From a virus (lineage: Duplodnaviria; Caudoviricetes): a stretch of 59,526 nucleotides of DNA. A program made the position numbers and the translations under genes. The stretch's first letter is position 1, and the number at the start of each line of letters is the position of its first letter. This document shows positions 266 to 35,076 of this stretch, piece after piece. Location of the stretch: positions 1-59,526 of the IMG/VR virus record IMGVR_UViG_3300025168_000093. The stretch is one strand, 5' to 3'. Below the pieces are notes generated by a model. The model searched no databases. It worked only from the letters and a program-made list of their open reading frames with translations, and was not told where the DNA came from.

Positions 266-289
266 ACTCCTTCAACCAAGCGATGTTTC

Positions 290-420
290 TAATGAATCAT
301 TATTCTTTCTATACAATATATTAATAATAATATAATAATATAATATCTATATGAATAATAGAATAATTGTAATAATAGGTTATTTTTACCTAGAGCCGCT
401 AGGGTAAGGTTTAATGTGAC
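290..420. promoter_or_regulatory. Very AT-rich intergenic region with TATA-like box (TTTAATG at 410-416) ahead of the membrane/GTPase operon
   Basis: Longest non-coding gap in the window, with (A/T)AATA-rich runs and a TATA-like element about 20-40 nt upstream of the GTG436/ATG454 starts. Confidence 0.4.
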
Positions 421-453
421 CTCTATAGTGGCGTAGTGTGGGGAGACAGTAAG

Positions 454-1107
454 ATGGATTACAATAGAGACGGACAAATTGACTCATCAGAATTGAGATT
501 GACAGGATTGATTTTAGCGCAATCAGCGTTAATAGGAACAGCAGTAGGAGTATTTGACTCAGGAATTTGGCTACCAGCAGGTAGTGGTAGTCATACAGTA
601 AACGGTATGACATATGCTATGGGTGCCTTGGCGGTACAAATCTTGGCTTATTATCTATTTAAGATGTTCTTTGAAAGAAGCATGAAAGATAGAGTAAGTA
701 CACAAAACCTTCAGAGAGATAAAGAAATAAGAATGAGAGATATTCAAAATTCTCACGAACAAAGAAGAATAGATATGGAACTTAGAGTACAAGAAATGCA
801 GTTAGAGCGCGAAATGATGATGTTTAGACAAAATCCTGAACTTTTTATGCATTCTGCTGAAACTATTACAGTGCCGGTGCCACCTAGACCAACAAATACC
901 CCGCCTAATAACGGGACTATGAGTTTAGGTTTAGACCAACTACATCAAAGTTCTATCCCTTATGTGGCACCTAGAGTAACTAATAACATAAATCACGTAC
1001 AGGCACAAGTAGATGCTATGGCGGATGATTTGGTACTTCAACAACAGAATGTTCGTCTTAAAAAAGACGGAACACCTGACATGCGATATTATAATGGAAA
1101 GAATTAA
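454..1107 (+). CDS. Membrane protein: N-terminal EF-hand-type loop, 2 TM helices, coiled coil, C-terminal KKDGTPDMRY motif
   Basis: ATG454 follows GGGGAG (track start GTG436). DYNRDGQIDSSE matches the DxNxDGxIDxxE loop. Hydrophobic segments LTGLILAQSALIGTAVGVF and YAMGALAVQILAYYLFKMFF; charged helical stretch after them. Confidence 0.75.
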   Translation: MDYNRDGQIDSSELRLTGLILAQSALIGTAVGVFDSGIWLPAGSGSHTVNGMTYAMGALAVQILAYYLFKMFFERSMKDRVSTQNLQRDKEIRMRDIQNSHEQRRIDMELRVQEMQLEREMMMFRQNPELFMHSAETITVPVPPRPTNTPPNNGTMSLGLDQLHQSSIPYVAPRVTNNINHVQAQVDAMADDLVLQQQNVRLKKDGTPDMRYYNGKN

Positions 1108-1134
1108 TACAACTATGATATCAGAGGGTAATTA

Positions 1135-1392
1135 ATGGGCCGTATATTCAAGACCCCAAAAGATGACTCGGTTGAAGAAACTTTGAGGGCTATGCATCTC
1201 GCTAATACATTTGATAATCATTACGAATGGGGTATCGGTTGGATAAGAACCCTAATTGTGGGCGCTCTTATGGCTTTTTCAGTGAGTGCTATAGAAGCAA
1301 ACAGTACGTTGAGTCTTTGGGAACTGACGGTAGAATGGTTTTATGCAAAGGTAGAAAATTTTGCAAATTGGTTAATTAATTTAGTAAGTTGA
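1135..1392 (+). CDS. Small membrane protein
   Basis: 85 aa; hydrophobic segment WIRTLIVGALMAFSVSAI and an amphipathic Trp-rich C-terminus; GAGGG RBS. Confidence 0.7.
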   Translation: MGRIFKTPKDDSVEETLRAMHLANTFDNHYEWGIGWIRTLIVGALMAFSVSAIEANSTLSLWELTVEWFYAKVENFANWLINLVS

Positions 1393-1402
1393 GGGATTTC
1401 TC

Positions 1403-2116
1403 ATGAGTATGACTGGTAGCGTATTAGTAGGTGCTGCCATTTGGGGACAAAATATATACAATTCTTGGAGACCTAGGAAAATTGGCATCTATGGTTCAAC
1501 CATGGTAGGTAAGACTACTCTTGATAGGTACATGACAACACCGGGAGAAATGGAAGATATACCTGATGAAGAGAGAACTCAACATTTCAAGTTATTAACT
1601 AAATATCTTTTACCAAAACCCACACGTAAAAGAATCACTTGGGAGGGTCAGAAGAGATTAGTCCATTCAGCAGATATAGGCGGTGAGCAAAAATATTGGA
1701 ATCTATGGGTCGAAGACATGGTGACAAGACAATGTGAAGCAGTTGTCTATATGTTTGATGACCGAGCCTTTAAAGGTGGAAAAGAAAGTTTAGACCAAAT
1801 AGCAGGTTTTACTTATCTAGTGGATGTTTTAACTACAAAAAATTGGAGATACCGTAATTTAAGGTCTAGGTGGAGAGGAAGAAAATATTCCCCTAAAATC
1901 ATTATGCTTGTGGCTAATAAGGCAGATAGGTACTTCGATAATGATGCAGCATTACTATGGCCGCAGGGTAGAATAGGCGAACATAAAATTTTCGACCCTT
2001 TCAGAGATGACCTAATAAGACTACAAAAAGCAGGGCTTAGAAGTAAGCGTTCTTTCATGGCTACAAGGATAGGTTGGAACGTAGAACCCACCTTCATAGA
2101 ACTATTGACCTCTTGA
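1403..2116 (+). CDS. Arf/Sar1-like (Ras superfamily) small GTPase
   Basis: G1 GSTMVGKTT, G3 DIGGE followed by QKYWNLW (cf. Arf DVGGQxxxRxLW), strand AVVYMFD, G4 LVANKAD, G5-like FMAT; hydrophobic/amphipathic N-terminal extension. Confidence 0.85.
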   Translation: MSMTGSVLVGAAIWGQNIYNSWRPRKIGIYGSTMVGKTTLDRYMTTPGEMEDIPDEERTQHFKLLTKYLLPKPTRKRITWEGQKRLVHSADIGGEQKYWNLWVEDMVTRQCEAVVYMFDDRAFKGGKESLDQIAGFTYLVDVLTTKNWRYRNLRSRWRGRKYSPKIIMLVANKADRYFDNDAALLWPQGRIGEHKIFDPFRDDLIRLQKAGLRSKRSFMATRIGWNVEPTFIELLTS

Positions 2117-2151
2117 GTGACCTTTTTTAATAAGCACCCATTGGGATAGAC

Positions 2152-2349
2152 ATGGCTAAGACAATAATGACAACCGCTTTGGTACACACAGGCGGAGGTT
2201 CTAGTAGTCTTAGAACGACTGTGCCGATGTGGATTGTAGAGCAATTTAATCTAAAATCAGGAGAAAAACTAGTATGGAAGGTCGCATCGGATGATTCTGG
2301 GGAGTTATTCATTAAGGTAAAGCCACGAGGTGTCTCCAATGGTACTTGA
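2152..2349 (+). CDS. AbrB/MazE/SpoVT-family DNA-binding protein
   Basis: SSSLRTTVPMWIVEQFNLKSGEKLVW matches the swapped-hairpin AbrB pattern; 65 aa; TATA-like TTTAATAA about 25 nt upstream. Confidence 0.8.
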   Translation: MAKTIMTTALVHTGGGSSSLRTTVPMWIVEQFNLKSGEKLVWKVASDDSGELFIKVKPRGVSNGT

Positions 2350-3325
2350 TATACCTGATAATATGTATCGGACTATGACCGGTCAACCTATACAACCAAC
2401 ACAATCATTAGGTCAATTAAGTGAATCAGCAATGGTTGCTTTATCCCATCAAGGTAATCCGCAATTCAATCAAGCGGCAATAATGGAACAAGCAATGGCT
2501 CAACAACAGATGATGATGATGGCTCAACAAAAAAATCTAGAAGTACCAAAAGTTAATTTTTATCCTTCAACTCATATAGACCCGCGTAAAGCCCGAAGAC
2601 AAGATATTAAGCAAGCATATAGATTATTGTCACCAGCGAAGAGATTTTGGTTAAGCCCTGCTAGATTATTTGGGCGCAAATATCGTTATAATAAAGAATC
2701 TTCACATTGTGTGATTGATGGTTGCGATTGTGCTGAATTGATTAAACATGATAATTTATATTCTAGAATAACTGATGATGAGTCAGGTAGAAGTCTTTGG
2801 GAAATGTATTGGAATAATCCTATCACTGGGCAAACCGAAGCATTCTTGGCACAAGACAAAGTTACATCCGGTCGAAGAATGAAAGGGACTTATTGCCCTG
2901 AACATCTTCATCTTTATCATCTCTTATGTAAATGGGAAGATGAACAAGAAAGAGAAGATGAATTGAGTCCTTCAAGGTTCAGAGATAAAATGAGAAAAGG
3001 CGTTAGTTTAGTTACCGTACCTGTTGCAGCCATAACTGGTAAACAAGAACCTTTACACCCTATGGTGACTAAATATGAACATTTTTTCACTGAAATAGAA
3101 AAAGATGCAATACAAAGTAAAGGCATTAATGTATGGCACATACCGAACCCTGACTCAGGAAATAATGATATCACTATGATTCAATTCGATATGAGAATGT
3201 TCCAAAAAGAAATTTTAGAAGCATCAATGCCAACACCAGCATTTCAGAGTTTCTTGAACCAACAACCGCCCCAACAAGTTCAAACTAATATACCCCCTCC
3301 GCTACAACAGGAGATTATACAATGA
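2339..3325 (+). CDS. Hypothetical protein with Gln/Met-rich N-terminus and Cys/His (putative Zn-binding) core
   Basis: ATG2339 follows GAGGTG (track start 2330). Motifs HCVIDGCDC and YCPEHLH; Q/P-rich termini. Confidence 0.7.
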   Translation: MVLDIPDNMYRTMTGQPIQPTQSLGQLSESAMVALSHQGNPQFNQAAIMEQAMAQQQMMMMAQQKNLEVPKVNFYPSTHIDPRKARRQDIKQAYRLLSPAKRFWLSPARLFGRKYRYNKESSHCVIDGCDCAELIKHDNLYSRITDDESGRSLWEMYWNNPITGQTEAFLAQDKVTSGRRMKGTYCPEHLHLYHLLCKWEDEQEREDELSPSRFRDKMRKGVSLVTVPVAAITGKQEPLHPMVTKYEHFFTEIEKDAIQSKGINVWHIPNPDSGNNDITMIQFDMRMFQKEILEASMPTPAFQSFLNQQPPQQVQTNIPPPLQQEIIQ

Positions 3326-3933
3326 CTCTAGGATTAAGTAACACAAATACAAATACATCAGGATTAAGTTTAGGTGCACAACAAGGATATGGTGCACAAC
3401 AAGGATATGGTGCACAACAAACACCTAACACATTTATGAATAATATGATGGGCAGCGCTGGTGCTAACCAATATTATCAACAACCTGTAGCACCACCTTC
3501 AGAAACTGAAATTTTATCTGCTATGTTAGGTACAATAAAACCTATAGAAAAATTTATGATATCACAAAATATGCCTGTATTCATAGAAATGATGTCTAAT
3601 ATATCTGCATTCTCTTTACTCAATGTGTTAAAAAACTGTAGTTTTAAAATAGATGACGAAGGAGTTATGAAATTAGATGTAATGTCGCTACCTTCAGACT
3701 TACAAACTCTAAGTGCTGAAAATATTATAGCACAATTGAACACATTACAAAACGTATCACAACAAGCAGTAACAAATGCCATGCAAGAACGAGACAGAAT
3801 TATCGGACTTTCACAACAATCTCTTCTACAAGGAGCACTAGGTGCAGCATTACAAGACCAAACTTTCTTAGAAAACGCTGGTAATGCCACCGGAGGATTT
3901 TTGAGAAGTGCATTCGGGCTACGCCCGCAATAA
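3322..3933 (+). CDS. Gln/Gly-rich hypothetical protein
   Basis: 203 aa, ATGA overlap with the upstream gene; GAQQGY repeats; helical C-terminus ending GGFLRSAFGL. Confidence 0.7.
   Translation: MTLGLSNTNTNTSGLSLGAQQGYGAQQGYGAQQTPNTFMNNMMGSAGANQYYQQPVAPPSETEILSAMLGTIKPIEKFMISQNMPVFIEMMSNISAFSLLNVLKNCSFKIDDEGVMKLDVMSLPSDLQTLSAENIIAQLNTLQNVSQQAVTNAMQERDRIIGLSQQSLLQGALGAALQDQTFLENAGNATGGFLRSAFGLRPQ
3373..3420 (+). repeat. 18-bp coding tandem repeat (GGTGCACAACAAGGATAT x2.7; GAQQGY)
   Basis: Read directly from the sequence. Confidence 0.9.
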
Positions 3934-3949
3934 ATAGCGAGATGATATA

Positions 3950-4207
3950 ATGAATAATAGACCAAATACACCAATGGGTTTTGTCCCTAGACCAGTAGCC
4001 GAAATGACTATGCAAATGATGTCTCCAAAAAGAAGCGTTATTATTGATATGGTGATGATACAATTCATCAGTGCTATAATATTAGGATTAGGCGTTCTTA
4101 TGTTTAAAGGTGGAGATTTAACAGCCTCTGAAACTTCCACATATATGATTGGTGTCTTTGTTGCTTTTCTTTTATTAACTAGCATATATGCAAGAATTAC
4201 CCAATAG
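3950..4207 (+). CDS. Small two-TM membrane protein (holin-like size and topology)
   Basis: 85 aa; two hydrophobic helices MVMIQFISAIILGLGVLMF and YMIGVFVAFLLLTSIYA. Confidence 0.7.
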   Translation: MNNRPNTPMGFVPRPVAEMTMQMMSPKRSVIIDMVMIQFISAIILGLGVLMFKGGDLTASETSTYMIGVFVAFLLLTSIYARITQ

Positions 4208-4239
4208 CATTATGAAACGCACACCATATCGTTACTCGC

Positions 4240-4917
4240 GTGGGTGAGCAAGTTAGCAAACGTTCTTGCGCTTTTTGTCAGCACGAAGAGAGAGCAATTT
4301 ACGAAGAAGTAATGCTTTCCGGTGATATGACAGCAAAGCAATTGGATAAAGAAATGGGTTGGAGAACCAACACTTCTGATAGACACTTTAGGAATCATAT
4401 GGGAGACTATCATATGGCTGCTAATCCTAGTTGTATAATATGCTCTCATGTAGAGAGAAGTAATTTTGAAAATCGTTATTTTACTGATGGTAGCGAATCG
4501 GAAAAAATAGCAGAAGAATTAGAGATAGGAGAAAATACTGTCTTTCATCATATGAAATTTCATTTTCAACCTTTGGTTCAACGCTCGGCAGCAACTGAAG
4601 TAGCGATACAAGTCGGTGCTGAGATGAATGTTTTGCGTAGCAATGTGGAAAAACTAAACAATAGATTAAATGAGTTTTTAGATGAAACGACAATACACGA
4701 AGATGGATTTGTTAGAGATGCTGTTGGGCTACATAAAGAAGTCAGAGAATCAATCAAGGATTTAATGAAAATGGATGACCAATGGGGCACTAAGAATGAA
4801 ACACCTCATATTAATCAAACTATAAACGTCTTAAAGGTAGAACTTTCAAAAGAAAGTCCTGAAACTTGGAGAAGGATTCGTGAAACTTTATTGGCTCAGG
4901 AGGTTGAAGAATTATGA
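4240..4917 (+). CDS. Putative terminase small subunit / DNA-binding protein with two tandem CxxCxH...HxxxH HTH-like units
   Basis: CAFCQH...RHFRNH and CIICSH...HHMKFH repeats, then a coiled coil; lies upstream of the packaging genes. Function is inferred. Confidence 0.5.
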   Translation: MGEQVSKRSCAFCQHEERAIYEEVMLSGDMTAKQLDKEMGWRTNTSDRHFRNHMGDYHMAANPSCIICSHVERSNFENRYFTDGSESEKIAEELEIGENTVFHHMKFHFQPLVQRSAATEVAIQVGAEMNVLRSNVEKLNNRLNEFLDETTIHEDGFVRDAVGLHKEVRESIKDLMKMDDQWGTKNETPHINQTINVLKVELSKESPETWRRIRETLLAQEVEEL

Positions 4918-9645: not shown

Positions 9646-10327
9646 TGTTTACGTCCTTAAAAAAAATGCAAGTATGAACGTGACACCGAGTGGTGCGCCT
9701 AGTCTGCAAGTAAATCTTGGTGGAGAAGGTAAAAAAATCAATTATTCTGATATGAGTCCAGCGGCTGCAAATTGGGGTAGAGGGGCTAGATATGCTGCTG
9801 CTATTCCGGCTGCTTGGTCAGCGTTGTCTACTTTAGCAGGTGATGGTCGAGAAGATTTATTCACTACTTTAGGTCAAGCGGGGCTTTCTGCATCAGCAAC
9901 GCACAATATTGCTAGAAGTGCATTAGAACCCGCCGCTGCAAGATTTGGAGAGAGAAGAAATTTTAAAAATAATCCTAGCCATTACAAAGATGGAAAATAC
10001 GTTGGACCACCATCGCCGCTACCTACACCACCACCGCCGCAAAATAGTTCCGGCACAACTCCTATTGCTTTACCTCAAGGGAATAGCGAATTGACGAATT
10101 ACACAAGTCAACCAATAAAAATGATAGAAAAGCCTGATGGTTCTTTCGGATATCCTTCTACGGATAACATGAATCAAGAGGCTGTTAAACAAAGTAGTTT
10201 GTTGCAAAATAACCCTGTTTTACCTCCACCTAAAGGTGCTACTAATCAAAATAATGAGGACCCTTTTCAGACTTCTATGAACGTCATGGACCAATCTAGA
10301 AGGAATATGAACAATAGTAACGGGTAG
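9638..10327 (+). CDS. Hypothetical protein with Pro/Asn-rich C-terminus
   Basis: 229 aa, overlapping both neighbours in the operon. Confidence 0.65.
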   Translation: MSSVYVLKKNASMNVTPSGAPSLQVNLGGEGKKINYSDMSPAAANWGRGARYAAAIPAAWSALSTLAGDGREDLFTTLGQAGLSASATHNIARSALEPAAARFGERRNFKNNPSHYKDGKYVGPPSPLPTPPPPQNSSGTTPIALPQGNSELTNYTSQPIKMIEKPDGSFGYPSTDNMNQEAVKQSSLLQNNPVLPPPKGATNQNNEDPFQTSMNVMDQSRRNMNNSNG

Positions 10328-11811
10328 TGACCATCATGGCAACAGATGATATGAAAGATTTCGTCCTAGAAATGGACAGAAAAATGTCTGAAAAGTCTTT
10401 TCATTATTTTTTTACAGATGTTCTAGGTTTTTTATACAATCATCATCATGAATCTTGGAAAGAAGGTTTAGAAGAATCTCAATACTATTGTGTTAAGGCT
10501 TCACGTGACCATGGAAAATCTGTATTTTTTATGTCGTATGCTTTATGGTTAGCAGCATTTAATCCTAATACACACATCATGATTTTCTCTCACTCTTTGG
10601 AGCAAACACTAGAGCATATGAGATTTATTAAGGGTAATATAGAAAGTACAGAAATGTTAAGAGATTTAGTACCTAAAGGTAGACCATGGGCTAAATCGTA
10701 TTTTGAATTTTCTAATGGTTCTCGTATTATGGCTAAATCGGTTGGGGGTGCAACACGTGGTTTCCATCCTGACGTAGTTGTGTGTGATGATATTCTTTGG
10801 GGTACTAGCGGTACTGAACTATCAAAAACTGCTGATTGGTTCTATGGTGTTTTGTTGCCAGTTCTTCATCACACTTCAAGACTGATGATGGTGGGTACAC
10901 CATTTAGTTACAATGATTTATATGCTGATTTGGAAAAGAAAGAAACATTCAGAGTAGAAACATATCCAGCCATTGATAGAGAAGGGGTCGCTATGTGGCC
11001 TGAACGTTGGAACTTGGAAGCACTACAACAAAGAAGATTATCTATGCCTGCTATACAATTTTCACGTGAGTATTTATGTGAACCAATTCATGACGTTGCA
11101 AGTATGTTCCCTATGGATATTTTAGAATTAGCAAGAGACCCTGAATTAAAATTAATGGATAGAGCAGAAACTGGTTACAATGAAGATGGAGAGCCGGATG
11201 GCGTATGGGGTCAGCACTTCATAGGTCACGACCCTGCTATATCTTCTGATAAGAATGCAGACTTTACAGCGATGATTGTTATGAGAATGTTACCGAATGA
11301 ACCGATAAAGCAATTGATACACGTTGTGCACGAAAGAGGAATGTCTTCTTTGGCACAGAAGAGAATGATGGTTATGCTTAACAGTAGATTTCAGCCCGAT
11401 TTAATAGAACTTGAAGGGAACAATTTTCAGCGTATGTTAGAAGCAGAGATGCGTGAAATGTCAGCAGATATGCCTATTAGAATTTTTATGACCACACGGA
11501 CAAAAAAAGAATCACTTTTCATGTCTCTTCTATTAGCCTTTGAACAAGGATATATCAAAACTCCATATGGAGATAAGAAATCACAAGAATTCACACATCA
11601 GTTGGAAGAACAATTAAATCGTTTTGGTATGCAAAAGAATGGACGTTTGGAATCCGTTGGTGTACATGACGATTTAGCCATGGGGCTTGCTTTGGCTAAT
11701 TGGGCAACTAAAGAATTCAAAGGTTCGGTTATACTTTTAGACGATGTAATGGAGAACTTCGATGGGTGGTTTGATGGGAATGCTAAAAGCCGAGGTTGGA
11801 TGGTGCCATGA
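10327..11811 (+). CDS. terL: Terminase large subunit
   Basis: Walker A-like KASRDHGKS, Walker B VVVCDD, motif III VGTP, RNase H-like nuclease GHDPA ... HDDLAMGLALA. Start may be ATG10336. Confidence 0.95.
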   Translation: MTIMATDDMKDFVLEMDRKMSEKSFHYFFTDVLGFLYNHHHESWKEGLEESQYYCVKASRDHGKSVFFMSYALWLAAFNPNTHIMIFSHSLEQTLEHMRFIKGNIESTEMLRDLVPKGRPWAKSYFEFSNGSRIMAKSVGGATRGFHPDVVVCDDILWGTSGTELSKTADWFYGVLLPVLHHTSRLMMVGTPFSYNDLYADLEKKETFRVETYPAIDREGVAMWPERWNLEALQQRRLSMPAIQFSREYLCEPIHDVASMFPMDILELARDPELKLMDRAETGYNEDGEPDGVWGQHFIGHDPAISSDKNADFTAMIVMRMLPNEPIKQLIHVVHERGMSSLAQKRMMVMLNSRFQPDLIELEGNNFQRMLEAEMREMSADMPIRIFMTTRTKKESLFMSLLLAFEQGYIKTPYGDKKSQEFTHQLEEQLNRFGMQKNGRLESVGVHDDLAMGLALANWATKEFKGSVILLDDVMENFDGWFDGNAKSRGWMVP

Positions 11812-11814
11812 GGG

Positions 11815-11910
11815 ATGAAGATGAAAGAGAACGACGAAAAAGATAATTTTTATGATAACACCACTTATATTGCTAACGAATATAACCTAAATAGAACTAA
11901 GTGGAATTGA
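11815..11910 (+). CDS. Possible 31-aa small ORF (MKMKENDEKDNFYDN...)
   Basis: Hand-translated; fills the terL-LAGLIDADG gap exactly; below the ORF-track cutoff. Confidence 0.3.
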   Translation: MKMKENDEKDNFYDNTTYIANEYNLNRTKWN

Positions 11911-11915
11911 TATTA

Positions 11916-13067
11916 ATGAATGATTTATTCTCTTCAACTGGTGAAGGTTGGTTTGAATCTCATTTAGGTTGTAGTGCTAACGACATAGTAAAGAGATTAA
12001 GAAAATCTAGAAGAATAAATAAATTTCAAAAACATGACATAGATGATATCATAAATGATGTAAGGACTATAAAAGCCTTAGAATTTGATAAAACTTTAGA
12101 TATGCATGGATGGATAAACAAAGAAGATTTTGCTAAAACTATACGCTCTTTTGGTCCGAGTGCTAAAGACCTCAAAGCGCTTAGGAAATTTGGTGATTCA
12201 AGACAAGTGAATTTAATTCGCGCTTGTAATCAATGGGAGCAAGCCAATAACATAGTTAAGATGTTAGGGGAACACGAAGGGGTTTGGGGGCAAGAAGAAA
12301 AAGATTCATGGGTTAAAGCAATGGACGAAAAAAAAAGTGCAAAATTAATTTGGAAGAACACTTTGCATCAAATGGATAGACTTACAGAAAAAGAAACTAT
12401 AGCACTAAAAAAAAGTGCAGAAGTTTTAGAATTTAAAGGACCCATGAGTGGTAGAAGTTTGTTTGAAAATCTTTATGAGAAAAAGATTTTACACAAAAGT
12501 ATGACTCCTATGAAACTTTCAAAACTGATTAGTATGTATGGGGAAGAGGTAGATATTATCGACGGTGCTACAAGGTCTACTTTTGTAAAAATGAATTCAC
12601 ACGGTTTAATTTTGAAAGACCCTTATGCTTATGCTAGTGGTTTTTTGGACGCTGATGGATATATCAGCATCACAGGACGTGGAGAACCAAGATGTGGTTT
12701 CATCGCTACAGGTACTAGAGGTAGAGCCCATTGTGAACATTTACAAAAAACTCTTGATTGTGGTATATTACAACTCGACCAAAAAATATACAAAGACGGC
12801 CAAAGGTCCCAACATAGATTACAATTCTATTCCAAGAACGATATTAGAAAGTTACTAACTGCTTTATTACCTCATTTACAAATGAAGAAAACACAGGCCA
12901 AAGCAGTGCTTGCTTATATTGATGAAGGGGATTCAATGCGTAAAGAAGAACTTAAAAAATTAGTTAAATATAGCAATTGGTCGGACGATACATCAAAAGC
13001 CGATTCGCTTCTCGCCGAATGGGGAGTAGACAGAGACGCTGTGAATAAGTGGACGGAGGGATTGTAA
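11916..13067 (+). CDS. LAGLIDADG endonuclease-domain protein with long N-terminal helical extension
   Basis: YASGFLDADGYISI motif followed by typical LAGLIDADG strands (HRLQF ... LLPHLQMKK). Track start GTG11901; ATG11916 is in frame. Confidence 0.85.
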   Translation: MNDLFSSTGEGWFESHLGCSANDIVKRLRKSRRINKFQKHDIDDIINDVRTIKALEFDKTLDMHGWINKEDFAKTIRSFGPSAKDLKALRKFGDSRQVNLIRACNQWEQANNIVKMLGEHEGVWGQEEKDSWVKAMDEKKSAKLIWKNTLHQMDRLTEKETIALKKSAEVLEFKGPMSGRSLFENLYEKKILHKSMTPMKLSKLISMYGEEVDIIDGATRSTFVKMNSHGLILKDPYAYASGFLDADGYISITGRGEPRCGFIATGTRGRAHCEHLQKTLDCGILQLDQKIYKDGQRSQHRLQFYSKNDIRKLLTALLPHLQMKKTQAKAVLAYIDEGDSMRKEELKKLVKYSNWSDDTSKADSLLAEWGVDRDAVNKWTEGL

Positions 13068-14788
13068 TGGCAGATAATGATGATGGTGGTAGAATTGCGA
13101 ATTTCCTATATGGTTTAGGTGATAGATTTCGTAGAAGACAAACACCTGAACCTACTATGGCATTGAATGTCACAGGTATTCAAGAACCAGTGTTGGCACA
13201 AGGTATTACAATACCTGCTTTATATGCAGTTACAAATGAAAATCTTGTATTGCGTACCATTGTATCAAAATTAAAACAAGAGATATTTAGAAGAGGATAT
13301 TATTTTGAAAAGAAGTTTCATTTTAAGTGCGATAGTTGTCAAGAAGAATATAGTGATTCAGTAGAGCAGTGTAAATTATGTGGTGGTGAAGTTAGAAAAC
13401 CTGATGTTGAACAATTACTATATCCGAAAACAGTTATTGAAGGTACAAATTCTATGGAACAATCTTTCATACAAGTGCTATATGAAATAGAACACGATTT
13501 GAATGTGGTAGATGATGCATTTTTAGTTATAGTAAAAGAATATTATGTGGACCCTGAAACTGGCGACATGATGTTCTATAGAGTTAAAGAAGTTATTAGA
13601 GGTAATCCAATTTTTATGAGAATTGTATCTGATAAACGTGGTGTTCGTGGCGGTCGTTACAAAGTTTGTCCTTTACATAGAGACCAAATATCTTATCCGG
13701 GTCAAGAAGAAGTTTGTGAAGTTTGTAATAATAAAATGCAAGATGTGCATTATGTCAACATGGTTGGTAGCGGTAAGACTCAATATTATATCGAAGGTGA
13801 AGTTATTCACGTATCAAAATATAATCCATCAAGACTCTACGGTAAAAGCCCTGTAAACTCAATGTGGAGGCAAGCAATGTCTCTAACCGCTATGGATAAT
13901 TATATCTATACCTCATATCAGAAAAGAAGAATGCCTAAAGGCATAATCTCTGTAACTACTGATAATTTAGAATCAATGAAATCATTTTGGAAAGCAGTGG
14001 ATGAGAAGATGGAAAGGGACCCACATTACATACCAAAAGTTGGTATTGAAAGTCAGACCGGTAGAGGTGGTGTAAACTGGGTTAAATTTATGGACACACT
14101 GGATGAAATGCAATACTCAGCAGTACGTGATGAAATACGCGCACGTATGTCTGCATTCTATGGTGTGAGCAATGTCTTTATGATTGATAATGGAAAATCA
14201 GGTGGTCTTGGAAATAACGGATTAGAAATTCTAGTGACTAACAGGTCCGTAGAATTCGGTCAAAAAGTATACACACAAGTATTATTTCCTAGACTTTTAG
14301 AACAATTTGGTGTTACAGATTGGAAAATTACTCTTTATCCTAACGAAGAAGAAGATGAAATCACTAGACTGCGCCGCGATGAGATGGAAGTTAATTTGGC
14401 TCAACGTATGATGATGCTTGGATATAAACCTGAATTATTAGAAGAAGGCGGTAACAGAGATATCCGATTCGTATATAGCAAGTTACCTGATAACGGAGGC
14501 GGAGCACCGCCCGCAGGAGGCGGTATGCCACCCGGTATGCCACCCGGTATGCCACCCGGTATGCCACCAATGGCTGCACCACCACCGGGCGGAGCACCAA
14601 TGCCTTCACCTATGCCCGGAGGTCAAGGAGTAGGACTCAGGAACAGAGGACCAGCGAGCCCTGATACTAGAACTACAGCCGGTACAGGTTCACCTATGTC
14701 TAGTGTTCAACAGAGAGGACCTATGCCTACTCAACAACAGAAAAATCAGGACCAAATATCCAACGCAGGCCGTTTAAGGGGCGCATAA
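13067..14788 (+). CDS. Portal protein with two Zn-ribbon insertions and Pro-rich tail
   Basis: Portal-like motifs (DLNVVDDAFLVI, EVIHVS..PSRLYGKSP, ARMSAFYGVSNVF); position after terL; ATG overlaps the upstream TAA. Confidence 0.9.
   Translation: MADNDDGGRIANFLYGLGDRFRRRQTPEPTMALNVTGIQEPVLAQGITIPALYAVTNENLVLRTIVSKLKQEIFRRGYYFEKKFHFKCDSCQEEYSDSVEQCKLCGGEVRKPDVEQLLYPKTVIEGTNSMEQSFIQVLYEIEHDLNVVDDAFLVIVKEYYVDPETGDMMFYRVKEVIRGNPIFMRIVSDKRGVRGGRYKVCPLHRDQISYPGQEEVCEVCNNKMQDVHYVNMVGSGKTQYYIEGEVIHVSKYNPSRLYGKSPVNSMWRQAMSLTAMDNYIYTSYQKRRMPKGIISVTTDNLESMKSFWKAVDEKMERDPHYIPKVGIESQTGRGGVNWVKFMDTLDEMQYSAVRDEIRARMSAFYGVSNVFMIDNGKSGGLGNNGLEILVTNRSVEFGQKVYTQVLFPRLLEQFGVTDWKITLYPNEEEDEITRLRRDEMEVNLAQRMMMLGYKPELLEEGGNRDIRFVYSKLPDNGGGAPPAGGGMPPGMPPGMPPGMPPMAAPPPGGAPMPSPMPGGQGVGLRNRGPASPDTRTTAGTGSPMSSVQQRGPMPTQQQKNQDQISNAGRLRGA
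14522..14569 (+). repeat. 12-bp coding tandem repeat (GGTATGCCACCC x4; GMPP)
   Basis: Read directly; lies in the portal C-terminal tail. Confidence 0.9.
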
Positions 14789-16243: not shown

Positions 16244-19200
16244 GTGATATGGTTGATAGAAAAAGATTATTCCATACACTTGAGGGCTAGAGATGATTTC
16301 TTTAAGAGTCTATTACTAAGCAACGAGTTTGGCGATGAAGCAATTCATTATCTAGAAAGTTTGCAAAATTTAAAACATAAAGGTTTTATTTTACAAAAGA
16401 ATTTTTTTGATGATATATGTTATTCACAAGCATCTATTTTGAAAGAGGTAGAGGGCTACACAAGTAATTGGGAAGCAAAAAACCGTCTGACGGATAGAAG
16501 TCCCGGCTCTCAAGAACACAAAACTTTGTCAAGCAGGGCTTCTTTACTGGATAATGTGAATCATATATGGTCTGATAGTATGGTAGACCAAAATGATGAA
16601 ATTAGTGAATTTGCAGCAAGGTGGCCCGAATCACGTTTTGATGGAGGAAGTAGATATAAACATCATCCGCATCATAAAGATATACACTCTCTAAGAAGAA
16701 AAAATTCTAAAACCGGTAGAAGTAATATGATAGAAGAACTAAGAGGTTACTACCTTCCTTCCGATGGAGGATTGAGTCGTGCAGCACTAGATGATGAAAG
16801 AGACTCTAAAATAGAAGAATATTATAAAGAACATAAAACTATTAGAGGGGTCACAAAAGCCATAACAAAAGAAAAGTTTAGCCCTTTTTTAAATTCTTTG
16901 AAAACCACCGCTGCTGGTACTGGAACCAAAGAGCACGCAGGAACATTTCAAAACAGTCTTTATGAAAGAGCATATAATAGATGGAGACAGTCACCAAAAG
17001 CAGAAGAAGCAATAAAATCAGGTATAAGCGATAGACAACTGAGAGAGCAACACTTTGAAGATGCAGCAGATTTATGGGAAAGTGATGATTACCAAAAAAC
17101 ACAAAAAATGGTAGAGAAAGATATTGAAGGTTACAATGATTATAAAGAATCGTTAGAGGTCTCAACAAAACACCCACATCGTCTAGGTTGGTTAGGTCAT
17201 AAACTTGGTTTAGAGTGGTTGGAACCTAAAGAAAGAACCGAAGTTGTAGAACATTTAATGAAGAATGGAGCGCATAAAGTGGATGGTCAGATAAAATTAT
17301 CTACAGGTTTAACCATACCTTTAGGTAGAGTTATTAGAAATATGATGACAAGAGGAGACCAAGAATACAAACATTCCCAAGGAGAACATTCTAGGGGATT
17401 GCCAAATTTACCACATCATCAAAATATAGATGACATTCAGGAAGATGAAAAACCTTTTACTGATGGAAAAATGAGAACTGTTCTCTCCACTACAAGAGTG
17501 AACAACAAGAAAAAGCAGAAACTAACAGATTTCATGTTGGACTATTACAACGATTTAATTGATTGGAACCAAGGTGATACTTTTGAAAAAAGAAGTACAT
17601 CCAAAGGTATAAATCAAGTGCCTATATTTAATGAAGACGATACTAAGAAAATTAAAGATATGATGAATGAATTGATGTCGGATGAGCAGGGTGATAACAA
17701 AATGAATGAGAGAGAGGCATTGAAATATGCTTTGATGTATCATAAGAAGTACGATAGTGGTTCAACTAAAACTAATTTAAAACCCAATGTGACCCTTGAA
17801 GATATTAAAAAATATACCTCATTAACAGAAGAACACCCATTGAGTAATATACTTAGAGTAAGTAAAGAAAACCCTATCTTTGCTTTAGATGAAGATGATG
17901 ATAAAAGTCTTGAAGCGTCAACTGAAAATTTTTACAAAACTTTGGAAAATAAAGCAGTAGATTTACAAACTATTGCAGAGGATTCTAAAGATATAAATAA
18001 TGTTTTAAGTATCTATAGGAATACACACGGGCCTGATATAAATTCTTTAAACGATAAAGAAAGACAACTCTATGAATCCAAAGACGGAAGACTTCTCGGT
18101 AGAGGTTCATATTGGGGACATCATTTTCAAAATGGAAGCAGTCCTATGTCTAATGGAACATGGTGGGATAAAATAAGCAGCATGCTACCGGGTTTCTTTG
18201 GTGAAATGACAGATAGCGGTTTTATACCTAGGAGCGATATGCATTCTCTTATAGGTAATATGGTAAAAGATATCAAAGACCCTCATCAAGAGTCTCCTGC
18301 TTCATTGGGTCAGTTAATGGGACATCATGATGCATCTTCTCCTATTAGTAGAAAAACATCGAGGGAAAGAAAGACTCGTAGTCGTGCAAGAAATAAACAC
18401 AACGGTGAATCAGCAGCACATACTTTTGCTCCTGATATTAATAGAGCCCTAATTGATAATCCCGATGGAAATTTTAGTGGTAATCTTCATGTCGCTTCAG
18501 GTGAATTAGATGCTCACCTTTTACATCATAATTGGGGCTCAATGACCGGTGCAGAGGTTGGTAGTGTTGTGGACACACATCTTGCTCATAATTCTTCTAG
18601 TCTTTTTAGAGATTATATTTTTGGTGGTCATTTTATCAAACCGGGTGATAAAGACCCTGAAACAGGCAGAGTTTTAACGGGCTCTCCTAAAATGAGGTTT
18701 AGCATTAAAGACATATTAAGTGGAAAGTATGATGAATCAATACCTTCTTATCAATTACAAGAAGAATTTGATGATGTGTTCCAAGAAAATCAGGATAGAA
18801 ATAATAAAACAAGTGATTTGAATGACAATAAAGAATTTTTACTTACTGGTAATGTGAAACAAAAAGATAACCAAAATCTGCTTACCTCATTAAATAATAA
18901 GAATCTAGATAGTCTTCAACTTTTACAAGAAAATGCCTATGATATGATGAGCGCAATTAAAGACTTTGAAGAATCAAAATCGCCTGATGGTTCTTTTGGA
19001 GACTCTAGATATTGGAGTTTTAAACAAATAGAATCCTATGATGCTTTCATGGCTTCAGACGAAGGAAGGAAAATGTTAGAAGATTTCGGTAATAATAACA
19101 TTCATTTGAATGACTACAAAGGTGCTACTGAAAAAGATATAAAGAATCATTATATTACAATGATAAAAGATAATATGACAAAACAATTAGAACAAATGAA

Positions 19201-21691
19201 AGAGGACCATACAGATATTACTAATAAATTAAATGAAAATTTATCTTTTGAGAATCAAAGAAGTTTAGATAAAACAGGTATAAGAGGAGGAAATTCAAGA
19301 CTTCAAGATATGGAAGAGATGAAAATGGCAAATGAAAAAGCGAGAATGGAAATTGCGAAAACTAAGATAATGCCTGAAATGTTAAAAATAGACCCCGAAG
19401 CCTTTAATCCAAACGACCCTACCAAATGTGCGATAAATATGTCGCAAGCAATGCACGATGCTGAATTATATCTTATGCATGTGCCTCATTCAGAACACGG
19501 TATGACCACATCGAATTACATACTTGGAGAACCCGAAACAAAATCTCTTACAACGGTTGGGGATAACACTAATTCGGACCATTCTTTTGCTAACCAATCA
19601 AAACATCTTAGAGAAAATGGAGTAGCATTACATCCAAATCTTACAGCAGAAGAAGCGCTAATAAAACTTAATTTACCAAATGATGCTGAACATCAAAAAT
19701 ATATTAAAAATATATTAGATGATATGGGTGGTGAAAGGAGATTCATGACTATGGGACAAATTTCTTCATTACATCCTAACTCTCCTTTTAATTATGGTAA
19801 AATAGCAGAAGACCCTCATCACGCTCATGACGCTATAGATGATTTAGCATTGGAGTCTAAGAGATTAATTACAGAGGAAAGGCAACAAGGAAACGCTGTA
19901 AATAATAAAAAACACATAAGAGAATTTAATTCTACCAACCCCATTTATAAATTCTTAAATAGATTACAGCGTGAATATAAAGTAGGCGGAGAAGTAGAAT
20001 TAGGTAATCATGGATTAACTCATCATGCGCTAAAAAGAGGTTTTTATGGTGATGAAACAGGTAAAAATAAAAGCGGTAATAGAACATATAATGAAAATAT
20101 GGCAAAAAGATACGCTACTGAATTAATTTCTTTTGATGAAGGTAAATTTAACGAAGGAGATATTGAAACAATAGAACAGACCCCAATAGGAAGAGGTAGA
20201 AGTGAAATACATCCTAATATTGCTGGTAAGGGCACACCAATAAATGCATATTACACATCACCGGGTTTTAGATTGCATCATGGTGTAGAGATGGGTGCGC
20301 CTTCTGCTAGTATGAATATTAATTTTAATGGAGATATTACTTGGGGTGATAAGACTATTTCTTCACCTTCTGTTATGCCTTCGGAATTTGTTCAGCAAGG
20401 ACTTTTAGGTGCAGAAACATGGCAAAATTTTCAACAAAATGCCACAACAGAAGGTTTCAATTTTGGTAACACTGTGAGTAATTCTGAAAGAGTGACACAA
20501 GAAGAACCCATATCGGAACTAAATTCAAATCTACAAACAATCACTAAAGCCGACTTGCCCAAAGAAATGCCTTTGATAGAACCCTATCACAAAATATTTG
20601 AAGTTGAAGACTTAGAACAACTAAGAGGATTCACTGGAGAATGGGTAGCAAGTATCTTGGAAGAAGGAGAAAGAATAAAAATAACTAGAAAATCTAGTTT
20701 CTTGGATGTAAAGAATACTGAAAACGAAAAAGTGGGTCTTAGTGATGATGAAAAAATATCACTGAGAAAGTTAGGTAAAAAGAACTATGTTATGGACGCA
20801 ATTAAGAATGAAAGAGGTATACACATTTTTGATATAATGCATTATGATGATAATGATGTTACAGATATGGACACTAGGGAACGCATCAAATTACTTCGTG
20901 GACAATTCGATAGTCATGAAAGAGTCATGATACCCGGACCTTCAAATTTGAAAATAATTGATGAAGAAGGTTTAGAGGATGCTGTAAAAAACCTAAACCT
21001 AGAAAACAAAGAAGGTAAAATCTTACTTAGAGATGCTAAATCAACTTATATGAAAGGGGAAGAAAAGCATCCAAAATGGGTTTTGTTGACAAAATCCGAT
21101 GATGAATTCCATATTCCTTTTGGTATGGAATTAGAGGATAATAATTTCATTATACATTTTGACCACGATGTCATAAAATACGATATAGTTGAAAATCAAG
21201 CAGAAAACCCTCGTTCTGCTTTAGGCGAATTAAATCAAAGAGATTATACATTACTTTTGGCTAAATCTCTTGAATCATATTGGAAACCATCTTTAGATGT
21301 AATGTTGAAAGAACAGAAAAAGATGCACGAAAGTGAAAGTGAAGATGAAAGTGAAGATGAAAGTGAAGATGAACAAATAGAAGAAGAAAGCGCTGGAATA
21401 ATTAAACCGGATGACCCTAATAATATATCTAAACCGGATTATAAGAAAGCGATAGATGTTTTAGAGAGAGTTTTAGATGCTATTGAAAAAGGTCATTTTC
21501 CTATGACAGCGGGTAAAGGTTTAGGAATTGATGTAGGAAGCGATATAGCGAGCCCTAGAGGTCCTACTAAATTGACTCATGAGTCTACTCTTCCTGATTG
21601 GGATATGAAAGAACGCTCTACTCAAGACCCTGAGAAACCTGAAGATTACCCTAAAAAGAAGAAAATACCTTCGCAGTCTATCGAATCTTAG
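16244..21691 (+). CDS. ~1800-aa head-module protein with C-terminal degenerate ATP-dependent DNA ligase (nucleotidyltransferase) fold
   Basis: Ligase-like motifs in order: GEWVASILEEGER (I), YVMDA (III), IHIFDIMHY (IIIa), ERIKLL, GKILLRDAKSTY (IV), KWVLL (V). Probable start TTG16253 after GAGGTGA. Confidence 0.75.
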   Translation: MIWLIEKDYSIHLRARDDFFKSLLLSNEFGDEAIHYLESLQNLKHKGFILQKNFFDDICYSQASILKEVEGYTSNWEAKNRLTDRSPGSQEHKTLSSRASLLDNVNHIWSDSMVDQNDEISEFAARWPESRFDGGSRYKHHPHHKDIHSLRRKNSKTGRSNMIEELRGYYLPSDGGLSRAALDDERDSKIEEYYKEHKTIRGVTKAITKEKFSPFLNSLKTTAAGTGTKEHAGTFQNSLYERAYNRWRQSPKAEEAIKSGISDRQLREQHFEDAADLWESDDYQKTQKMVEKDIEGYNDYKESLEVSTKHPHRLGWLGHKLGLEWLEPKERTEVVEHLMKNGAHKVDGQIKLSTGLTIPLGRVIRNMMTRGDQEYKHSQGEHSRGLPNLPHHQNIDDIQEDEKPFTDGKMRTVLSTTRVNNKKKQKLTDFMLDYYNDLIDWNQGDTFEKRSTSKGINQVPIFNEDDTKKIKDMMNELMSDEQGDNKMNEREALKYALMYHKKYDSGSTKTNLKPNVTLEDIKKYTSLTEEHPLSNILRVSKENPIFALDEDDDKSLEASTENFYKTLENKAVDLQTIAEDSKDINNVLSIYRNTHGPDINSLNDKERQLYESKDGRLLGRGSYWGHHFQNGSSPMSNGTWWDKISSMLPGFFGEMTDSGFIPRSDMHSLIGNMVKDIKDPHQESPASLGQLMGHHDASSPISRKTSRERKTRSRARNKHNGESAAHTFAPDINRALIDNPDGNFSGNLHVASGELDAHLLHHNWGSMTGAEVGSVVDTHLAHNSSSLFRDYIFGGHFIKPGDKDPETGRVLTGSPKMRFSIKDILSGKYDESIPSYQLQEEFDDVFQENQDRNNKTSDLNDNKEFLLTGNVKQKDNQNLLTSLNNKNLDSLQLLQENAYDMMSAIKDFEESKSPDGSFGDSRYWSFKQIESYDAFMASDEGRKMLEDFGNNNIHLNDYKGATEKDIKNHYITMIKDNMTKQLEQMKEDHTDITNKLNENLSFENQRSLDKTGIRGGNSRLQDMEEMKMANEKARMEIAKTKIMPEMLKIDPEAFNPNDPTKCAINMSQAMHDAELYLMHVPHSEHGMTTSNYILGEPETKSLTTVGDNTNSDHSFANQSKHLRENGVALHPNLTAEEALIKLNLPNDAEHQKYIKNILDDMGGERRFMTMGQISSLHPNSPFNYGKIAEDPHHAHDAIDDLALESKRLITEERQQGNAVNNKKHIREFNSTNPIYKFLNRLQREYKVGGEVELGNHGLTHHALKRGFYGDETGKNKSGNRTYNENMAKRYATELISFDEGKFNEGDIETIEQTPIGRGRSEIHPNIAGKGTPINAYYTSPGFRLHHGVEMGAPSASMNINFNGDITWGDKTISSPSVMPSEFVQQGLLGAETWQNFQQNATTEGFNFGNTVSNSERVTQEEPISELNSNLQTITKADLPKEMPLIEPYHKIFEVEDLEQLRGFTGEWVASILEEGERIKITRKSSFLDVKNTENEKVGLSDDEKISLRKLGKKNYVMDAIKNERGIHIFDIMHYDDNDVTDMDTRERIKLLRGQFDSHERVMIPGPSNLKIIDEEGLEDAVKNLNLENKEGKILLRDAKSTYMKGEEKHPKWVLLTKSDDEFHIPFGMELEDNNFIIHFDHDVIKYDIVENQAENPRSALGELNQRDYTLLLAKSLESYWKPSLDVMLKEQKKMHESESEDESEDESEDEQIEEESAGIIKPDDPNNISKPDYKKAIDVLERVLDAIEKGHFPMTAGKGLGIDVGSDIASPRGPTKLTHESTLPDWDMKERSTQDPEKPEDYPKKKKIPSQSIES
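21335..21370 (+). repeat. 12-bp coding tandem repeat (GAAAGTGAAGAT x3; ESED)
   Basis: Read directly; acidic linker. Confidence 0.9.
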
Positions 21692-23131: not shown

Positions 23132-23136
23132 ATAAT

Positions 23137-28933: not shown

Positions 28934-29327
28934 TGTTGATTTTGAAAATAGAGTTTTTAAATCTTTTTTTAAAGTAGTAAACCAAAGTATGGCTATAACA
29001 AAAAAACAAAAAGAAATCAAAAGTGCTTTGGTTAATGACCCTGAAACAGAATCCTTCAAAGGGATAATAGAAAAACAAGAGTTATCCATGTATGGTTTTC
29101 AAAAAGATAAAGAAGATATCTATTTAAATGGAAACCAACAACCAATTTCTATAGAAGAAAAAGCAAAAATACAATCAAATATAGAACTTAGGATGATAAC
29201 AGAAAGCCCAAAACTAAATAATTTGAGTCTTATGAATATGCAAGGAAAAATTATTCTTGATAGTGAAAGTATAAAGAACGCCGTTAGAAGAGGCGACGAT
29301 AAAGAGAACGTAGGGAGAGGATATTGA
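28926..29327 (+). CDS. Hypothetical neck-region protein
   Basis: Probable TTG28926 start after GGAGGT (track 28887). Confidence 0.55.
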   Translation: MSDVDFENRVFKSFFKVVNQSMAITKKQKEIKSALVNDPETESFKGIIEKQELSMYGFQKDKEDIYLNGNQQPISIEEKAKIQSNIELRMITESPKLNNLSLMNMQGKIILDSESIKNAVRRGDDKENVGRGY

Positions 29328-35063: not shown

Positions 35064-35076
35064 ATTGGTGATTAAT

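Follow-up and report, generated by a model that had tools for sequence, protein, structure and literature searches.

The window analyzed here, the whole of the linear, 59,526-base IMG/VR record IMGVR_UViG_3300025168_000093 of a tailed virus (Duplodnaviria; Caudoviricetes), carries near its left end a compact cassette of genes that is built around a small GTPase. An earlier note, made from the letters of this DNA alone, had described seven genes in this region as a candidate membrane-remodelling or egress module. That observation was confirmed and its interpretation was partly supported, in that the module is real and membrane-linked. The arrangement is more than chance, because it recurs in 131 related loci, and we consider it fairly likely that the cassette is a membrane-acting GTPase switch module.

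The seven genes, referred to as g1 to g7, are all encoded on the plus strand between positions 436/454 and 4207, with intergenic gaps of 10–35 nt or overlaps, and are thus as co-oriented and tightly packed as the earlier note had stated. The cassette and its left border comprise the following features (ORF, open reading frame; TM, transmembrane segment; aa, amino acids; HMM, hidden Markov model).

Positions 269..453, no strand assigned: AT-rich intergenic stretch preceding g1, which forms the left cassette border and is a putative promoter region.
Positions 454..1107, plus strand: g1, membrane protein of 217 aa (223 aa from the GTG at 436); from the ORF and its TM profile.
Positions 1135..1392, plus strand: g2, single-TM protein of 85 aa; from the ORF and its TM profile.
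Positions 1403..2116, plus strand: g3, small GTPase of the Ras superfamily, 237 aa; from motifs, an AlphaFold2 model and a PDB profile search.
Positions 2152..2349, plus strand: g4, SpoVT/AbrB-like putative DNA-binding protein of 65 aa; from a sub-threshold match to PF04014.
Positions 2339..3325, plus strand: g5, Cys/His protein of 328 aa (331 aa from the GTG at 2330); from alignment.
Positions 3322..3933, plus strand: g6, Gln/Gly/Asn-rich protein of 203 aa; from alignment and HMM.
Positions 3950..4207, plus strand: g7, two-TM protein of 85 aa; from its TM profile.

A scan for sigma-70 promoters and terminators, using a model that is unsuited to archaea, gave numbers not above those of shuffled sequences (21 vs 19.9 and 4 vs 2.8, respectively), and no RNA sequencing run was listed as containing positions 300–4300 of the window.

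Related loci were searched with single proteins and with one alignment (A1) as queries, and the GTPases of the 131 loci collected fell into five clades, A to E. Clade A comprised 20 IMG/VR loci, whose GTPases are 67–94% identical to that of the window, clade B four loci, and clade C 13 loci. Clade D yielded 140 matches, from which 80 loci were retained, and clade E comprised 11 metagenome loci, four of which were examined. Clades B to E were reached from full-length distant members of an 86-protein profile search, and IMG/VR scans with three further queries (P0129, P0158, and P0159) yielded no loci. The conservation of each gene was assessed with iterated HMMs built on the clade of the window. 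In clade A, g2 to g7 were collinear in all 20 loci and g1 was present in 19, the remaining locus beginning inside the cassette. Clade E showed the order g1-g2-x-GTPase-g5-g6-g7, where x is an additional ORF of approximately 256 aa without a family match (L121:7229-7999 and equivalents). The clade-A GTPase was also found in only three of 185,579 species genomes, each time on a short contig (8–16 kb). These three contigs (L118, L119, and L120) are part of metagenome-assembled genomes labelled Maricaulis, Promethearchaeati, and Parvibaculum, and each of them carries the full cassette; most likely, they are viral contigs that were mis-binned into cellular genomes.

The product of g3 has intact G1, G3, and G4 motifs, as expected for a member of the Ras superfamily. 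GxxxxGKT, DxGG, and NKAD were invariant in the 20 clade-A GTPases, and the key residues of these motifs (G, G, K, D, G, N, and K) were invariant in 12 family-wide GTPases and likewise in 14 cross-clade sequences. The AlphaFold2 model shows a Ras-like alpha/beta G-domain fold (predicted local distance difference test, pLDDT, 68; predicted template modelling score, pTM, 0.71), for which Foldseek ranked Rac, Rho, Rab, and Ras first among PDB structures (E from 1.6e-7, probability 1.0, TM-score 0.46/0.6). The G4–G5 spacing is about 15 residues longer than is usual for Ras. A profile search of PDB sequences identified 8OUN/8OUM as the best solved relative (E = 4.8e-10), with an alignment that begins in the N-terminal helix. 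These entries represent GerdArfR1, an Arf-related GTPase of Asgard archaea (bioRxiv 10.1101/2024.02.28.582541), and Asgard Arfs have been shown to bind membranes in a manner that depends on GTP and on the helix (PMC11914678). Among 12 diverse members of the family, Pfam matched Arf in seven (best E = 5.2e-9), Roc in five, SRPRB in three (best E = 5.9e-6), and Ras in two. The GTPase of the window itself gave no match to Pfam Arf (PF00025) at E ≤ 1 and matched only Roc (0.0053) and MMR_HSR1 (0.26). The glycine at the third position of G3 (DxGG), a feature of the Arf family (PMC11914678), occurs in 12 of the 14 cross-clade representatives including the window, the other two, from clade C, having D-[LI]-A-G. 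Overall, the designation as Arf-like that the earlier note had proposed holds, given the match to GerdArfR1 and the Pfam Arf matches of more than half of the diverse members. After DxGG, clade A has Gln or Glu, and clades D and E have Gln.

Upstream of the G domain, a hydrophobic N-terminal helix was predicted at residues 5–20 and was modelled at low confidence. The best 18-residue windows in this segment had a mean hydrophobicity H of 0.50–0.69 and a hydrophobic moment muH of 0.19–0.48; most of these values lie within the range given in PMC11914678, and a few H values lie above its upper limit. The windows scored only weakly above shuffled sequences (p = 0.006–0.44 across representatives), and no 19-residue Kyte-Doolittle window of the N-terminal segment reached 1.6. 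All clades share an R/K-rich basic loop before beta-5, and no GTPase representative ends in Cys. An exhaustive profile search retrieved only 86 of 1.84 billion representatives at E ≤ 1e-3, most of them fragments, and a tblastn search of 50,697 phage records with the GTPase as query gave no match at E ≤ 1. Judged from these searches, the family is very isolated and, as far as searched, virus-restricted. Structural matches in BFVD pointed to giant viruses of eukaryotes in all 49 named entries among the 50 listed, one row being nameless. Some family members bear the automatic JGI name “GTPase SAR1 family protein”, and the distant representative P0204 was named SR-beta by JGI.

Directly 3′ of the GTPase, g5 was found in 112 of 117 IMG/VR loci, and the five loci without it all end less than 620 bp past the GTPase. 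The gene is also present in the four examined clade-E loci and in the three mis-binned contigs. In clades B and C and in part of clade D, the start of g5 overlaps or abuts the stop of the GTPase gene, and wherever g4 is missing it overlaps or closely follows this stop. As far as can be judged from gene order, g5 is the invariant partner of the GTPase. Its product has a Gln-rich N-terminus and contains five Cys, ten His, and 9% Gln. A basic stretch, C124, the pair C186-x2-H189, and H194 are conserved, and the position three residues after C124 is occupied by Cys, Asp, or Thr. This Cys/His set is a probable zinc site. The g5 family comprises 1034 clusters, none of which is named, and no relative was found in Pfam, among PDB sequences (best E = 1), or in the Atlas. 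Its AlphaFold2 model (pLDDT 66.8) did not match any PDB fold in Foldseek (best E = 1.1), and a predicted complex of the GTPase with residues 60–310 of g5 scored 0.27 compared to the mark of 0.32. The g5 gene of one locus (L077:7093-7779) is split into three ORFs, which reflects either a broken copy or a sequencing error.

The next gene, g6, follows g5 and was detected by HMM in 20 of 20 clade-A and 13 of 13 clade-C loci. It encodes a central domain of ~100 aa between Q/N/G/M-rich low-complexity ends and has three Gly-Ala-Gln-Gln repeats. Profile-profile alignment linked the g6 proteins across clades in a chain (hhalign; A–C 98.7%, B–D 96.9%, C–D 86.2%), and clade-E proteins matched as well. 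No relative of g6 was found in the PDB (best E = 0.77) or the Atlas, and Pfam gave no match of note.

Between the GTPase gene and g5, clade A carries g4 as a clade-specific insert: the HMM detected it in 20 of 20 IMG/VR loci of clade A and in none of 97 loci of clades B to D, and it is also present in L118–L120. The match of g4 to SpoVT/AbrB (PF04014; E = 9.4e-4) reached 19.5 bits compared to a cut-off of 24.7, and five of six relatives matched the same family at E values from 9e-5 to 0.014, all under the cut-off. The idea that g4 could be a MazE-type antitoxin paired with a toxin was dropped, since its occurrence is limited to clade A and no match to a toxin family was obtained. One g4 reference (L013:3292-3498) contains an internal stop and is either a broken copy or affected by a sequencing error.

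Three further genes encode membrane proteins, whose TMs were called with the Kyte-Doolittle scale. The g1 protein has one strong TM at residues 16–34, a weaker second TM that is visible at a lower threshold in eight of 19 clade-A relatives, and, downstream of the TMs, a charged helical region followed by a Pro-rich tail. The g2 protein has one TM at approximately residues 34–55, and g7 has two TMs and is holin-like in size and topology; for both, the TM profile agrees with what the earlier note had read from the sequence. Homologues of g1 were found 5′ of the GTPase in 19 of 20 clade-A, four of four clade-B, and 12 of 13 clade-C loci (iterated HMM) and in all four examined clade-E loci (E ~1e-15). 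In profile-profile comparisons (hhalign), clade A matched clade B at 94.6% and clade C at 87.7%. At the same position, clade D has a two-TM ORF that cannot be aligned with g1. A 60–110 aa ORF occupies the g2 position in every clade. Its similarity between clades is weak (hhalign 25–45% for A–B and A–C, none to D), and one clade-E locus matches the g2 HMM at 9e-5. Regardless of sequence similarity, the ORF at the g1 position contained a TM in 108 of 111 loci and that at the g2 position in 103 of 111 loci, compared to 190 of 1130 control ORFs of 60–250 aa. By HMM, g7 was present in 20 of 20 clade-A and 12 of 13 clade-C loci and in none of the four clade-B and 80 clade-D loci; it was also found in the four examined clade-E loci.

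Residues 2–13 of g1, counted from the ATG at 454, fit the strict pattern of the canonical 12-residue EF-hand loop. Such strict matches are rare, with only five in 486,670 ORF residues of all loci, four of them in cassette ORFs. Lying at the extreme N-terminus of the protein, the loop gave an EF-hand_5 match in Pfam (E = 0.001) of 18.9 bits compared to a cut-off of 25.9, and it occurs in six of 23 clade-A g1 proteins, which form one sub-clade. Hence, of the EF-hand/two-TM protein described by the earlier note, the loop pattern and one strong TM stood, while the loop stayed under the Pfam cut-off and the second TM is weaker. With a relaxed pattern, 18 matches were found in the cassette zone (203,142 residues) and none outside (280,122 residues). 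Six of these are at the g1 N-terminus in clade A and 12 in a clade-C ORF, and as the sequences within each set are related, the 18 matches amount to two events. This pattern hints that a link to calcium may have been gained twice, independently, in the cassette. The clade-C ORF is small, soluble (75–144 aa), and located between g7 and g8 in 12 of 13 loci. It contains a canonical Ca-binding loop, D-x-D-G-D-G-D-F-D (example L025:9621-9875), and matches Pfam EF-hand_6 at 0.0045. A resemblance to Miro, which the earlier note had seen as split across genes, was dropped. In Miro, a single polypeptide contains two GTPase domains on either side of EF-hand pairs and is anchored by a C-terminal TM; here, there is only one G domain, the EF loop is not conserved, and nothing links the genes to that architecture.

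Comparison of the clades shows that the core of the cassette, as far as sequence comparison can define it, consists of five to six genes, namely g1, g2, the GTPase gene, g5, and g6, with g7 as an accessory in clades A, C, and E. By the same comparison, the AbrB-type g4 and the EF-type loops are peripheral and clade- or sub-clade-limited. The seven-gene unit proposed by the earlier note was thus not retained in that form. The check that it had suggested, a conserved synteny in relatives, came out positive: the genes co-occur across five clades in several genomic contexts, which are as follows.

Clades A and C: the cassette precedes g8, followed by a block leading to the large terminase subunit gene (TerL) and the portal gene.
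Clade B: the cassette follows a chaperonin-like ORF of 511–553 aa (assigned by eye from the N-terminus).
Clade D: the cassette lies between a protease and major capsid protein (MCP) unit plus three small ORFs on one side and tail-side genes on the other.
Clade E: the cassette lies after glycosyltransferase-like ORFs (assigned by eye) and before a strand switch.

The 3′ flank in clade D contains homologues of the window ORFs at 27278–28933 and 29324–29776 and of the tail tube gene (29788–31812). The ORF that follows g6 in this clade is hypervariable and ranges from 412 to 1326 aa among close relatives (L039:9134-10507, L076:9092-13072). In the window, 6.1 kb and five ORFs separate the cassette from the start of TerL at 10327; the statement that the genes are located directly upstream of the packaging genes is therefore valid only loosely, and for clades A and C. 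The internal order of the cassette remained constant over four or five genomic contexts, and this constancy amid changing surroundings indicates that the cassette behaves as a horizontally mobile unit. Consistent with mosaicism, positions 1–267 of the window share 99.3% identity with L012, a locus whose own cassette reaches just ~67–72%, and from position 269 onward the identity of the window to L001, a locus without any match to 1–268, is 91% and subsequently 88%. The junction at ~268 falls exactly on the left border of the cassette and represents either a natural recombination or an assembly chimera. A chimeric contig end had been named in the earlier note as a reason for doubt; whichever origin the junction has, the cassette itself is corroborated by other loci.

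On its 3′ side, the cassette adjoins g8 (4240–4917, 225 aa) in clades A and C. The g8 protein contains two copies of the motif C-x2-C-x-H/S-x-E-R and gave weak helix-turn-helix matches (GerE, 0.0029; PHROG 867, DNA-binding domain), and a role as regulator or small terminase subunit is conceivable. Searches of g1 to g8/g9 with PADLOC and NCBIfam returned nothing useful.

The closest known analogue of the cassette, by the comparisons made here, is the ArvA/ArvB/ArvC (OapA/B/C) vesiculation operon of Euryarchaeota, which does not appear to be a relative. In each system, a single operon combines a small GTPase of the Ras superfamily, whose helix has been proposed to touch the membrane, with a partner encoded directly 3′ of it and a zinc-binding protein; the hosts belong to the same phylum-level group, and both systems are thought to act on membranes (PMC10927574). 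Unlike ArvABC, the viral cassette adds two to three integral membrane proteins, and its zinc-type protein g5 has 225–340 aa and no known fold. The ArvC/OapC family PF09845 (DUF2072) had no match in the whole record, whereas Haloferax and Methanosarcina controls did match; it also had none in 14 g5 relatives at E ≤ 10. Pfam likewise gave no match of g5 or g6 of the window to the ArvB domain DUF2073 at E ≤ 1. The GTPase resembles Arf and the Asgard ArfR proteins in having GerdArfR1 as its best solved match, a mostly conserved DxGG, a hydrophobic N-terminal helix, and no C-terminal Cys for lipidation. It differs from them in that the window protein misses Pfam Arf, that clade C has D-x-A-G, that Foldseek ranks Rac, Rho, and Rab first, and that it contains extra inserts including the polybasic loop. 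With the signal recognition particle receptor subunit SRbeta it shares an Arf-like G domain after an N-terminal hydrophobic segment and the SRPRB matches of three of 12 members, and clade B has His after DxGG, as SRbeta presumably does. However, no partner resembling SRalpha/SRX was detected, and the N-terminal segment of the viral GTPase lacks the length or the hydrophobicity of a clear TM. Among the BFVD matches listed, structural neighbors of viral origin are limited to Rab-, Ras-, and Ran-like GTPases of giant viruses that infect eukaryotes. In contrast to the cassette GTPase, which is divergent and has its own partner genes, they are apparent copies of host trafficking GTPases.

The cassette probably acts on the host membrane. 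In the mechanism that we propose, the GTP-bound GTPase would dock on the host cytoplasmic membrane via its N-terminal helix and basic loop and would there meet g1, g2, and g7, which would serve as platform or target. The products of g5 and g6 would function as regulator or effector of the GTPase, like an Arf with a zinc-finger GTPase-activating protein (GAP) or ArvA with ArvB/ArvC, and the switch would time or drive a late membrane event, most likely progeny release. In favor of egress are the position of the cassette within or next to late structural and packaging genes, its holin-sized membrane proteins, the lack of any other visible exit candidate in the window, and the uncharacterized state of egress in archaeal tailed viruses. 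In lambda-type phages, the lysis genes are located just upstream of the terminase gene. The small proteins with one or two TMs (g2 and g7) and the compact operon near packaging and structural genes are reminiscent of such holin cassettes, in which the three soluble viral proteins, including the GTPase, have no counterpart. According to Kuiper 2024, the players in the egress of archaeal tailed viruses are “completely uncharacterized”, in agreement with the statement of the earlier note that the exit mechanism of these viruses is not established. A role of the cassette in progeny release, through GTP-switched membrane rupture or egress, is put forward tentatively; that the encoded machine itself deforms or ruptures the archaeal membrane and so releases the virions is a somewhat doubtful extension of it.

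Several observations weigh against this interpretation. No lytic enzyme was found within or beside the cassette, and no holin family was matched by g1 to g9 (Pfam, PHROGs, and NCBIfam in both cases); g2 and g7 also lack the charged C-terminal tail typical of holins. Outside the cassette, the ORFs scanned with Pfam and PHROGs (the giant ORF described below over its first 3000 residues only) contained no lysis enzyme or holin family either. To this extent the earlier remark that no endolysin is visible was borne out, and as the record is only ~55% complete (CheckV), an exit system could be encoded in the missing part. No precedent is known for a six-gene lysis system with a GTPase. The N-terminal helix was modelled with a pLDDT below 50, and in clade A it is not clearly amphipathic (shuffle p ~0.17–0.2; window ~0.17). 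The catalytic Gln after DxGG is replaced by His in clade B and by Ala or Asp in clade C; with this residue varying, intrinsic hydrolysis may differ between clades or rely on a partner. Finally, the cassette of clade B follows a chaperonin-like ORF, and the chaperonin of magroviruses belongs to the replicative block (Philosof 2017, PMC5434244), which weakens the argument from late genes.

Besides progeny release, the cassette could serve an ArvABC-like remodelling without lysis, in which the GTPase together with g5 and g6 would bud, tubulate, or partition the host membrane and would produce vesicles, a platform for replication or assembly, or a viral compartment built on g1, g2, and g7. The gene layout parallels arvA-arvB-arvC of Haloferax, where a directly downstream partner and a Zn-ribbon protein accompany the GTPase and where deletion of arvA abolishes extracellular vesicles (Mills 2024, PMC10927574). 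The affinity of the GTPase to the membrane-binding Asgard Arfs (PMC11914678) and the Q/N/G-rich low-complexity ends of g6 would also fit. Nevertheless, the partners are unrelated in sequence to ArvB and ArvC, no large cellular GTPase family came up in the exhaustive profile search, and tailed virions, which have no envelope, have no obvious need for budding, so that we regard remodelling of this kind as rather unlikely. Another possibility is a membrane-anchored morphogenesis, with the cassette nucleating or chaperoning the assembly of capsid, portal, or packaging machinery and the GTPase as an assembly checkpoint. Its embedding between protease-MCP and tail-tube-side genes in clade D, and within a block running into TerL and portal in clades A and C, points in this direction. 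Morphogenetic genes usually keep their place, however, whereas the cassette shifts to chaperonin-like and glycosyltransferase-like neighbors in clades B and E; none of its genes resembles PHROG head, tail, or packaging families, and haloarchaeal relatives that share the structural module gave no GTPase match (tblastn, phage collection). We therefore judge a morphogenetic role improbable.

Small membrane proteins accompanied by regulators are also typical of exclusion or moron cassettes, and the genes could accordingly alter envelope functions of the host, such as a receptor, motility, division, or transport, in the course of host take-over, signalling, or superinfection exclusion. The AbrB-type g4 in clade A, a possible ribbon-helix-helix-like ORF (identified by eye) upstream of the cassette in clade C, the mobility of the cassette and its mosaic junction, and the Ca-loop elements that arose twice within it are compatible with such a function. 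This explanation has little probability in our view, since the cassette is near-universal and ordered over five divergent clades, unlike patchy accessory genes, and PADLOC found no match. It could finally be argued that the genes have no joint function and are neighbors only because magrovirus genomes are collinear: the order of genes in magrovirus modules is generally conserved (Philosof 2017, PMC5434244), and the clade-A loci are close relatives, as the identities of their GTPases show. Yet the internal order of the cassette is kept while its surroundings change completely among clades, and the start of g5 overlaps or abuts the GTPase stop, which makes mere collinearity highly improbable.

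If the proposed role in progeny release is correct, archaeal tailed viruses would gain their first defined egress system and prokaryotic viruses their first membrane system based on a small GTPase, to our knowledge; the cassette would be a viral counterpart of ArvABC, or of an Arf with its GAP, beyond eukaryotes and Asgard archaea. It would extend zinc-partnered small-GTPase switches at membranes, so far associated with eukaryotes, Asgard archaea, and ArvABC, to prokaryotic viruses, and it adds two abundant protein families without a known fold, g5 (1034 clusters) and g6. As a 4-kb cassette with clear boundaries in at least five clades, whose GTPase can be locked in its states by standard mutations, it is directly testable. 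The main texts of the magrovirus papers searched do not mention a GTPase (supplements, which perhaps list “GTPase” or “SAR1”, were not covered), and nothing in the literature searched links magroviruses with a GTPase, or a GTPase of Marine Group II viruses with Arf. The GTPase domain had already been machine-annotated by JGI, and no published description of the cassette was found.

With regard to the virus, all gene-like ORFs of at least 100 aa in the window are located on the plus strand. The packaging and structural genes identified with Pfam and PHROGs are listed below.

Positions 10327–11811, plus strand: TerL.
Positions 13049–14788, plus strand: portal protein.
Positions 21758–23131, plus strand: prohead protease.
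Positions 23128–24270, plus strand: HK97-type MCP.
Positions 29788–31812, plus strand: tail tube protein.

In tblastn searches, the MCP showed 33% identity to the Haloarcula tailed viruses HVTV-1, HCTV-1, and HCTV-5 (Druskaviridae-type), and its other matches were only viruses assigned to methanogens (11 records). A large ORF of 1815 aa within the structural module (16244–21691) contains an ATP-dependent DNA ligase domain at residues 1512–1612 (E = 1.8e-5, slightly under the cut-off); its clade-D homologue is shorter, with ~760 aa. Located between TerL and portal, a homing-endonuclease-like ORF (11901–13067) matches a PHROG HNH endonuclease at 2.8e-7 and weakly LAGLIDADG_3, and residues 27–79 of its product weakly match EF-hand_7. 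Magroviruses of groups A and B have a ligase embedded in the structural module, and a homing-endonuclease-like ORF and 33% MCP identity to haloviruses have also been described for magroviruses (Philosof 2017, PMC5434244). Because of these three shared features, we assign the window, on the basis of its gene content, to a marine archaeal tailed virus of the magrovirus type, in line with the virus of archaea assumed in the earlier note.

Downstream of the tail genes, a giant ORF of 5537 aa (35002–51615) encodes a concanavalin-A-like lectin domain (Laminin_G_3) near its N-terminus, as detected in the first 3000 residues, which were the part scanned; the product is probably a tail fibre, adhesin, or tape-measure-like protein. 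Among the tail genes, a 270-aa protein (31820–32632) carries a clear SAP DNA-binding motif (E = 4.4e-12).

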